DNA from: Podarcis bocagei
Taxonomy: Eukaryota
DNA: 64,000 nucleotides
Direction: 5' to 3' (one strand)
Assembly: GCA_964188305.1 (NCBI GenBank)
Contig: OZ076895.1
The notes under the pieces are model-generated. The model saw only the letters and a program-made list of their open reading frames with translations, did no database searches and was not told the origin of the DNA. Made by a program: the position numbers and the translations under genes. Shown piece by piece: positions 1,283 through 1,690 of the stretch. Within the stretch, counting starts at the first letter, position 1. Each line of letters opens with the position of its first letter.

Positions 1283-1690
1283 TGTTAGGGATTGATTAGC
1301 TGCTTGTGCGTAAAAACGTGCTCCCTCAGAGTTTGTGCGATCCCACAAACCTCAGTGTGTGACGGAGCTCCTCAGACATGTCTGCTCTAGTCACTAGTAG
1401 AGTCCGACAGTGGCTGTCTGCGGAAGCGTTTCCAACAAAGGAGCTCCTTAACGGAAACGCGTCTCCTGGACTCACGGCGTGACAGTTTCCGGCGAGGTAT
1501 AGGTCTCCCTATGGGAGACTCAGATACCTCGCCACTGTTCTCGCTGGAAGCGTCCCTGAGCCCTCCCTCCTGCTCATATTCCCTCAGAGAACCACTCCTC
1601 CCCCTGCTGGTGCCTGCTTCAGCTGTTGAGTCTCTTTCTTCCTCCCTGAGCCCCTCCACCACCTGATGCTCCGATGGCAGTTCCCTGACA
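1283..1690 (-). repeat. 3' LTR of the Gypsy element
   Basis: Element-sense TGTCAGGGAAC...CCCTAACA, preceded by a polypurine tract. Confidence 0.97.

Follow-up and report, generated by a model that had tools for sequence, protein, structure and literature searches.

An LTR-encoded Pol tail in a putatively self-priming chromovirus of Podarcis bocagei

In the window, which is the whole 64,000-nucleotide stretch of DNA analysed here, the Pol frame of a Ty3/Gypsy element crosses the polypurine tract (PPT) and continues for 100 codons into the 3′ LTR, and this LTR-encoded tail is almost certainly under selection as coding sequence. Our main reading, to which we give a probability of roughly 0.6, is that the whole inferred U3 encodes a selected integrase tail, likely for nuclear import and for chromatin tethering of the integration complex. 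The reading of Pol into the 3′ LTR is already established for chromoviruses (the plant CRM elements); what is new is a vertebrate LTR-encoded Pol end with selection, a conserved basic/hydrophobic end motif and two FxGF motifs.

Overall structure of the element

The element lies on the minus strand, and a solo LTR of the same subfamily lies on the plus strand.

1283–6752 (−): full-length Ty3/Gypsy chromovirus of the Tf1/sushi type, 5,470 bp, with identical LTRs and the 5-bp target duplication GCTGG
6345–6752 (−): 5′ LTR, 408 bp
1283–1690 (−): 3′ LTR, 408 bp; inferred U3 at 1412–1690, R from 1411
5286–6299 (−): gag, with capsid and zinc knuckle; 88 nt are shared with pol, which is in the −1 frame
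1387–5373 (−): pol frame, 1328 codons from stop to stop, with protease, RT, RNase H, integrase, SH3, chromodomain and C-terminal extension
19191–19598 (+): solo LTR, same subfamily, 1 base different; target duplication ACCAC

The two 408-bp LTRs do not differ from each other and have TG..CA termini, which, with the PPT, the 5-bp target duplication, the lack of env and the Pfam order PR–RT–RH–IN followed by SH3/GPY-F and a C-terminal chromodomain (Chromo, E = 1.4e-11), identifies the element as a chromovirus. The closest named proteins to those of the element are from wall lizard. A −1 shift is required within the gag–pol overlap at 5286–5373 (−). This overlap shows no evident slippery heptamer of the canonical kind, and the G-runs that it has in the window are lost in subfamily A2.

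The solo LTR at 19191–19598 (+) is a second near-identical young insertion, 12.4 kb from the full element, and sits between a CpG-rich stretch (23–24 kb) and coding exons at 10449–14839 (−) of a histidine phosphatase of the phosphoglycerate mutase type, which we take to be BPGM-like; the full element is located about 4 kb past the last coding exon of this gene. The host flank at 6752–6760 (−) places an in-frame ATG before the 5′ LTR and thereby gives a 103-codon ORF, which is copy-specific chance and illustrates a possible route to LTR recruitment.

Extension of the Pol frame into the 3′ LTR

1691–1722 (−): polypurine tract region, in which Pol reads GGEGGPGGEV; purine run at 1691–1704
1387–1689 (−): integrase tail encoded in the LTR (100 codons and a stop), with an acidic spacer ahead of a basic end

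After crossing the purine run at 1691–1704, the Pol frame could be traced to a stop that ends at LTR nt 304 of 408, as the initial annotation had proposed, and the residue counts agree with its description of the added tail as acidic and then strongly basic: codons 1–62 lean to the acidic side (15 D+E versus 8 K+R), whereas the last 38 codons are basic (13 K+R versus 4 D+E), with 12 K+R within 26 residues. The same annotation had treated the extension as an oddity on the grounds that the pol of Gypsy elements usually stops before the PPT, a view that has to be given up for chromoviruses since all plant CRM group A chromoviruses and some others also read into the 3′ LTR. Among 20,000 dinucleotide shuffles, 2.5% leave one given frame free of stops over 100 codons, so that the open frame alone is modest evidence and the decision falls to dN/dS.

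The tail contains no Met and, in the 5′ LTR, its sequence precedes the putative start site of transcription, and it can therefore only be the end of Gag-Pol; the suggested likeness to nef and MMTV sag and the idea of a separate accessory gene were thus abandoned, as was an accessory ORF with its own start or spliced RNA. Among the sequencing runs found to contain the sequence, none is recorded as RNA. No spliced joints were found among the reads of two single-cell RNA runs, which were shallow and from a related species. These two raw runs, from one sample, yielded 578 and 523 reads, which fall on both strands and in part cross the PPT junction, with no pile of read starts; an adaptor is present at 1395 in four reads, at a distance of 16 nt from the inferred start, and these are too few for mapping of the start or of poly(A). 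Pfam assigned no family to the 100-residue tail; queries against PDB sequences, made with the tail, with the FxGF stretch and with two small profiles, gave nothing below E = 0.95; and the 172 residues after the chromodomain had no usable match in the ESM Atlas.

Selection on the tail in family A

Subfamily A1 was sampled through 40 scored matches out of 2,873 first-look candidates, of which 30 were fetched, the window included, and the diverged subfamilies A2 and A3 were fetched with the protein queries P0001 and P0002. Because loci were picked by best score, intact frames are favoured. All 30 fetched A1 copies are open, with mutual differences of at most 11 of 918 nt, and the tail is also open in 14/14 A2 loci; the expectation that the frame stays open through U3 in other copies held to this extent, and held less well in A3, in which nine of 14 loci are open and five older copies have a premature TGA at an arginine codon, which we infer to be CpG decay. 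No frameshift occurs in the tail in any of the 58 family-A loci, and the length changes in the coding LTR are 45 and 21 nt, i.e. multiples of three.

Over the 100 LTR codons, dN/dS between the window and six copies of the two subfamilies is 0.22–0.30 in all six pairs (Fisher P 4e-7 to 4e-5), and between A2 and A3 it is 0.26; the pairs share rows and correspond to about three independent contrasts. The constraint is uneven along the tail, with dN/dS of 0.32–0.47 in the weakly constrained first 62 codons and 0.10–0.13 in the last 38. Elsewhere in Pol the values are 0.02–0.06 in RT–RNase H (five pairs computable), 0.02–0.05 in the integrase core, 0.07–0.11 in SH3 plus chromodomain and 0.10–0.30 in the acidic linker ahead of the PPT. 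The last 38 tail codons are thus constrained as strongly as SH3 plus chromodomain.

The low ratio is specific to the Pol frame. In the other two sense frames of the tail dN/dS is 1.73 and 1.41, and the changes by codon position in the Pol frame are 16/16/32. The antisense frames give 0.50, 1.08 and 1.15; an antisense 91-codon frame at 1391–1666 was considered as a gene and rejected, its value of 0.50 being explained by third positions shared with Pol. The three frames of the non-coding LTR end gave 0.40, 2.85 and 0.50, none of them significant (lowest P 0.075), which makes these 29 codons a weak control. From the low dN/dS in the Pol frame only and the in-frame length changes it follows that the tail is kept as protein.

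Self-primer and the inferred U3/R border

6332–6342 (−): primer-binding site (PBS) of the self-priming type, without a tRNA-type TGG start
6463–6473 (−): self-primer in the 5′ LTR (LTR nt 280–290), complement of the PBS and inferred 5′ end of the transcript

LTR nt 280–290 form an 11-nt perfect complement of the PBS, a match reached by 3/2000 shuffles (0.15%), and primer and PBS co-vary through compensatory changes in subfamilies A2 and A3; among 30 A2/A3 loci the pair is fully complementary in 25 and mismatched in four, and one locus is without a PBS match. On the basis of this complementarity and co-variation, we place the probable start of transcription at LTR nt 280, in which case the 279-nt U3 would be wholly coding, the primer would be read as codons and the stop would lie in R. 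The proposal that the LTR doubles as promoter and as coding sequence for an integrase extension was borne out in that the promoter is predicted and selection, as judged by dN/dS, maintains the frame in relatives. The PBS would pair with the first ~11 nt of the predicted RNA, and self-priming via the RNA 5′ end is described as a hallmark of the Tf1/sushi group (bioRxiv 10.1101/2022.12.06.519325).

The primer–PBS pair forms in the folded leader, the whole fold being no better than those of shuffles (z −1.4). The self-primer complement is 11 nt long in A1, A2, A3 and family B (two copies) and 10 nt long in family C (two copies). Family B has the same geometry, with primer 610–620 and stop 631 in one copy, primer 679–689 and stop 700 in a second, and TATTAAG at −31; in family C the stop at 349 is just ahead of a GATAAAA box and the primer is at 392.

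The chromodomain and the FxGF motifs upstream of the PPT

1942–2091 (−): chromodomain; Glu at the third aromatic-cage position, the first being His/Asn in relatives
1858–1899 (−): first FxGF-like motif, F–acidic linker–LEGF; FVGF in P0187, FQGF in family B
1756–1809 (−): second FxGF motif, full helix–acidic linker–FxGF (WRELFETSEDEEDSFRGF), like TND-interacting motifs

At the cage positions, which we assigned by assumption from HP1, the residues are Y/W/E in the window, H/W/E in A3 and P0187, N/R/T in family B and Y/W/Y in family C. In terms of the aromatic-cage concept for chromodomains (PMC6317226), the window does not have the three aromatic cage residues of a type I chromodomain; by alignment the cage appears intact in C, reduced in A and gone in B, the chromodomain of which is below the Pfam cut-off.

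A TND-interacting motif consists of a hydrophobic helix, an acidic linker of 8–16 residues and FxGF (PMC9987994), of which the FxGF part is reported to be essential for LEDGF and HRP2 binding, and the motifs are often in tandem (PMC9987994; bioRxiv 10.1101/624023). The second motif of the window, with helix–LF, nine acidic or S/T residues and FRGF, has this pattern at the level of sequence, and the first has L in place of the first F; in family B the first motif has an S/T-rich linker. The residues W, F, E, F, G and F are invariant across 5/5 A-type proteins down to 40% identity. In 100,000 shuffles the full helix–acidic–FxGF pattern, which was picked after being seen, occurred at 0.011% and bare FxGF at 1.2%. 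The FxGF profile matched no PDB chain at E ≤ 10. We consider the chances to be evenly divided that the FxGF motifs would bind LEDGF/HRP2.

No FxGF-type motif was found in the tails of family C and of 12 other rows of the tree described below. FxGF-type motifs are limited to the A+B branch, which is the branch with the damaged chromodomain cage.

The end motif encoded in the LTR

1426–1479 (−): basic/hydrophobic end motif (RRESRRRVSVKELLCWKR), conserved; overlaps the inferred core promoter (−31 position)

The LTR-encoded ends of families A and B share R-x-S-x(3-4)-L-x-W behind an Arg run. The hydrophobic core of the motif falls on the inferred TATA position and its last codons fall on the self-primer, and because the motif overlaps the −31 box and the primer, part of the likeness between A and B may be DNA constraint; within family A, synonymous changes occur across the TATA-like codons, with L-L-C-W retained. 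By composition an NLS in the basic end is plausible, and a role of this end in import or tethering is probable.

Two known motifs were compared with the window and rejected. Of the CENP-C core motif, defined as RxxxxPxx[YW]W (PMC4830207), only R and the last W match, Pro and the first aromatic being absent. The HMGN nucleosome-binding consensus RRSARLSA (PMC13347269) is likewise absent from the window's tail, which has only the RRxxR spacing. The LTR-encoded end of family C (L107:5983–6117) reads RRSARLKA, one residue off this consensus, and the surrounding 40 codons are nearly invariant. The protein P0245 terminates in RRSARIAA soon after the PPT motif. Prediction of a complex between the last 45 residues and the H2A/H2B of the genome scored 0.01, with the alignment not used and no folded controls, and counts neither for nor against binding.

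Families B and C in the same genome

The Pol proteins of families B and C are 55% and 47% identical, respectively, to that of the window element. In family B, Pol reads 209–232 codons into LTRs of ~750–825 bp, and dN/dS is 0.25–0.38 for the tail and 0.11–0.15 for the last 40 codons (three pairs). In family C, Pol reads 110–115 codons into LTRs of 664–683 bp; dN/dS of the tail is 0.42 and 0.48 (P 0.036 and 0.071), and the last 40 codons are almost without variation, so that protein and DNA constraint are not separable in this end.

Stops are carried by 3/12 loci from one search. Among older family-B loci, 12/14 show the junction and 6/12 are frameshifted or stopped in U3, most matches in this search also carrying stops elsewhere. 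Frameshifts in U3, the free accumulation of which the initial annotation had named as evidence against a coding role, are absent from all 58 family-A loci; frameshifts and stops do occur among older B copies. In 6/30 young family-C loci a 1-nt change in the PPT run ends Pol 1–11 codons into the LTR; the family-C query favoured short tails, and two of the tail-less loci share a target site. These copies (L119, L120, L123, L128, L129 and L136) have the change in the G/C run of the PPT, and slippage, assembly error or mobilisation in trans are possible explanations.

The listed young A1 copies, 40 in number, are distributed over 16 contigs, and their flanks showed no difference in GC or CpG from those of young C copies (29 versus 22 flanks; P 0.15 and 0.25). 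Many older A2, A3, B and C copies are on one 96.5-Mb contig (C19), e.g. more than half of 36 listed matches, and this contig carries only 2/40 listed young A1 copies. Some of the copies on it are duplicates or tandem arrays with shared LTRs (L112, L113, L121 and L130–L132). Our guess is that this contig could be a W chromosome.

Distant relatives

A profile search covered 1.84 billion proteins, of which the best 150 matches were examined. Among these, the end motif is present in the distant proteins P0187, P0191 and P0193, and acidic-then-basic tails also occur in viper and amphisbaenian proteins. A tree of 24 rows, 3/27 having been left out as the anchor motif was not found, places the element with vertebrate chromovirus proteins, with no named reference (sushi-ichi, Tf1) among the rows; A, B, C and the viper and amphisbaenian proteins form one clade (100/96), every member of which has a tail that is first acidic and then basic, and within which A and B are sisters (100/99).

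Where a protein has no accompanying DNA, the Gly-rich PPT motif is the sole marker of its LTR border. Six of the 150 proteins, one of them named as from a catfish, share a short ending 13–21 residues past this motif, which one of them lacks by pattern. From these endings, short read-through seems to be common in vertebrate relatives and the long LTR-encoded tail seems to be a squamate trait. The fish-type relatives P0217, P0222, P0232, P0288, P0316 and P0322 have in common an RPRGRP stretch, presumably AT-hook-like, and the short conserved ending, which is probably also LTR-encoded.

Comparison with known systems

The end of Pol is encoded in the 3′ LTR in plant CRM group A elements (CRM, Beetle) as in the lizard element; in all plant CRM group A chromoviruses Pol is reported to read into the 3′ LTR, where the CR targeting motif is encoded (PMC3059260), as do Beetle7 and Bingo1–4 and 7 (PMC3605345), and the CR module is regarded as having been acquired later (PMC6317226). 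The CRM elements are tRNA-Met primed, are found in plant hosts and have the CR motif instead of a chromodomain, whereas the lizard element has a self-primer and a recognisable chromodomain upstream of the tail. The lizard tail spans all of the inferred U3 plus the primer, and Pfam gives it no likeness to the CR motif. By sequence, the lizard element is thus placed outside the CRM group and is CRM-like in layout.

With the Tf1/sushi group (V-clade: sushi-ichi, Amn-ichi) the element shares, as that group is described, the domain order, the chromodomain and the 5-bp duplication, as well as the −1 gag–pol arrangement and the self-priming PBS (bioRxiv 10.1101/2022.12.06.519325). The fish and amphibian relatives among the matches have short tails, whereas the squamate clade has 100–232 LTR-encoded residues, with a degenerate cage in A and B.

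The TND-interacting motifs of IWS1, KMT2A, JPO2 and JIL-1 resemble those of the window in the hydrophobic helix, the acidic S/T-rich linker of 8–9 residues, the FxGF and the tandem arrangement (PMC9987994; bioRxiv 10.1101/624023). The known FxGF carriers are host proteins, including PogZ, a domesticated transposase (solved fusion, PDB 6emp); the lizard FxGF motifs, the resemblance of which is one of sequence, are upstream of the PPT and outside the LTR. Lentiviral integrase binds LEDGF through a different surface. For the acidic-patch motif of HMGN, Dsup and Dot5 (PMC13347269), the family C end has RRSARL and the window end only the RRxxR spacing.

In nef and MMTV sag, as in the lizard tail, coding overlaps U3. 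These are separate genes on spliced RNAs, whereas the lizard tail is a Pol end without a start codon. A literature search outside the classic sushi papers, Repbase and supplements returned no long LTR-encoded integrase tail in vertebrates and no FxGF in retrotransposon integrase.

Proposed role of the tail and alternative explanations

The tail may act as follows. Gag-Pol would be made from genomic RNA through a −1 frameshift, and translation would proceed across the 3′ copy of U3 to the stop 24 nt inside R, so that the integrase would retain the tail as a disordered extension. Behind a chromodomain without a full cage, the two acidic FxGF motifs would bind LEDGF/HRP2, the readers of H3K36me3 on transcribed genes, at their TFIIS-N-terminal (integrase-binding) domain; then would come a flexible acidic spacer, and then the Arg-rich end as NLS and as nucleosome or DNA anchor.

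A simpler alternative, which we regard as unlikely although it is the strongest of those considered, is that the tail is an NLS on a long spacer and has no part in insertion-site choice. The 12 K+R within 26 residues and the dispersal of the 40 listed young A1 copies over 16 contigs would suit it, and Ty1 integrase has a known C-terminal NLS, as has also been suggested for the CRM elements (PMC3605345); nevertheless, the non-basic S, L and W are kept across A, B and the distant proteins, which goes beyond the needs of a simple NLS, and family C ends in an HMGN-like motif.

Cleavage of the tail by the element protease into a small protein, such as an RNA/DNA chaperone, a particle component or an anti-silencing factor, is less probable still. 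Polyprotein processing is usual for such elements and the combination of a basic end with a long acidic spacer would be fitting for a chaperone of nucleic acids, but a conserved hydrophobic cleavage-like site was not seen in the spacer by eye, the tail has no start codon of its own, and its place right behind the chromodomain is that of the targeting modules of other chromoviruses.

That the read-through is tolerated, with constraint on the DNA of the promoter, self-primer and PPT and a protein tail that does little, is very improbable and is largely refuted by the dN/dS results. The frequency of the given open frame in shuffles (2.5%), the overlap of the end motif with the −31 box and primer and the missing tail of some family-C copies are in its favour, but it is contradicted by the third-position excess in the Pol frame only (16/16/32; dN/dS 1.4–1.7 in the other sense frames), by the retention of L-L-C-W despite synonymous changes in the TATA-like codons of family A and by indels in multiples of three.

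Least credible of all is a CENP-C-like centromere anchor comparable to the CR motif of plant CRM elements: Arg and terminal Trp are spaced nine residues apart in A and B, which matches the CENP-C core, and many family-B matches, in match lists that are score-picked and not a census, lie within a few Mb of contig ends; on the other side, neither the Pro nor the first aromatic of RxxxxPxx[YW]W is present, and the young A1 copies are dispersed.

The import and tethering role of the tail can be placed in a wider model, which we put forward tentatively and think somewhat more likely to be wrong than right. Squamate self-priming chromoviruses would have made the whole U3, with core promoter and self-primer, coding for a chromatin anchor, and one branch would have swapped methyl-lysine reading for FxGF mimicry, docking on LEDGF/HRP2 and inserting into transcribed chromatin.

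Conclusions

In conclusion, the interest of this element rests on the targeting model more than on the overlap of Pol and LTR. To our knowledge, the insertion-site choice of vertebrate LTR retrotransposons is almost unstudied, and the families described here are amplifying now, with identical LTRs and 2,873 first-look candidates; A, B and C differ in the cage, the FxGF motifs and the LTR-encoded end motif, and so offer a natural comparison of targeting within one genome. The same nucleotides would act as promoter, as start of the transcript, as primer for reverse transcription and as codons, with several constraints overlapping in little space, and with every solo LTR comes an intact frame of 100 codons, which host exons could recruit. 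If true, FxGF docking would mean that the cofactor used by HIV is reached here independently, by means of a motif.
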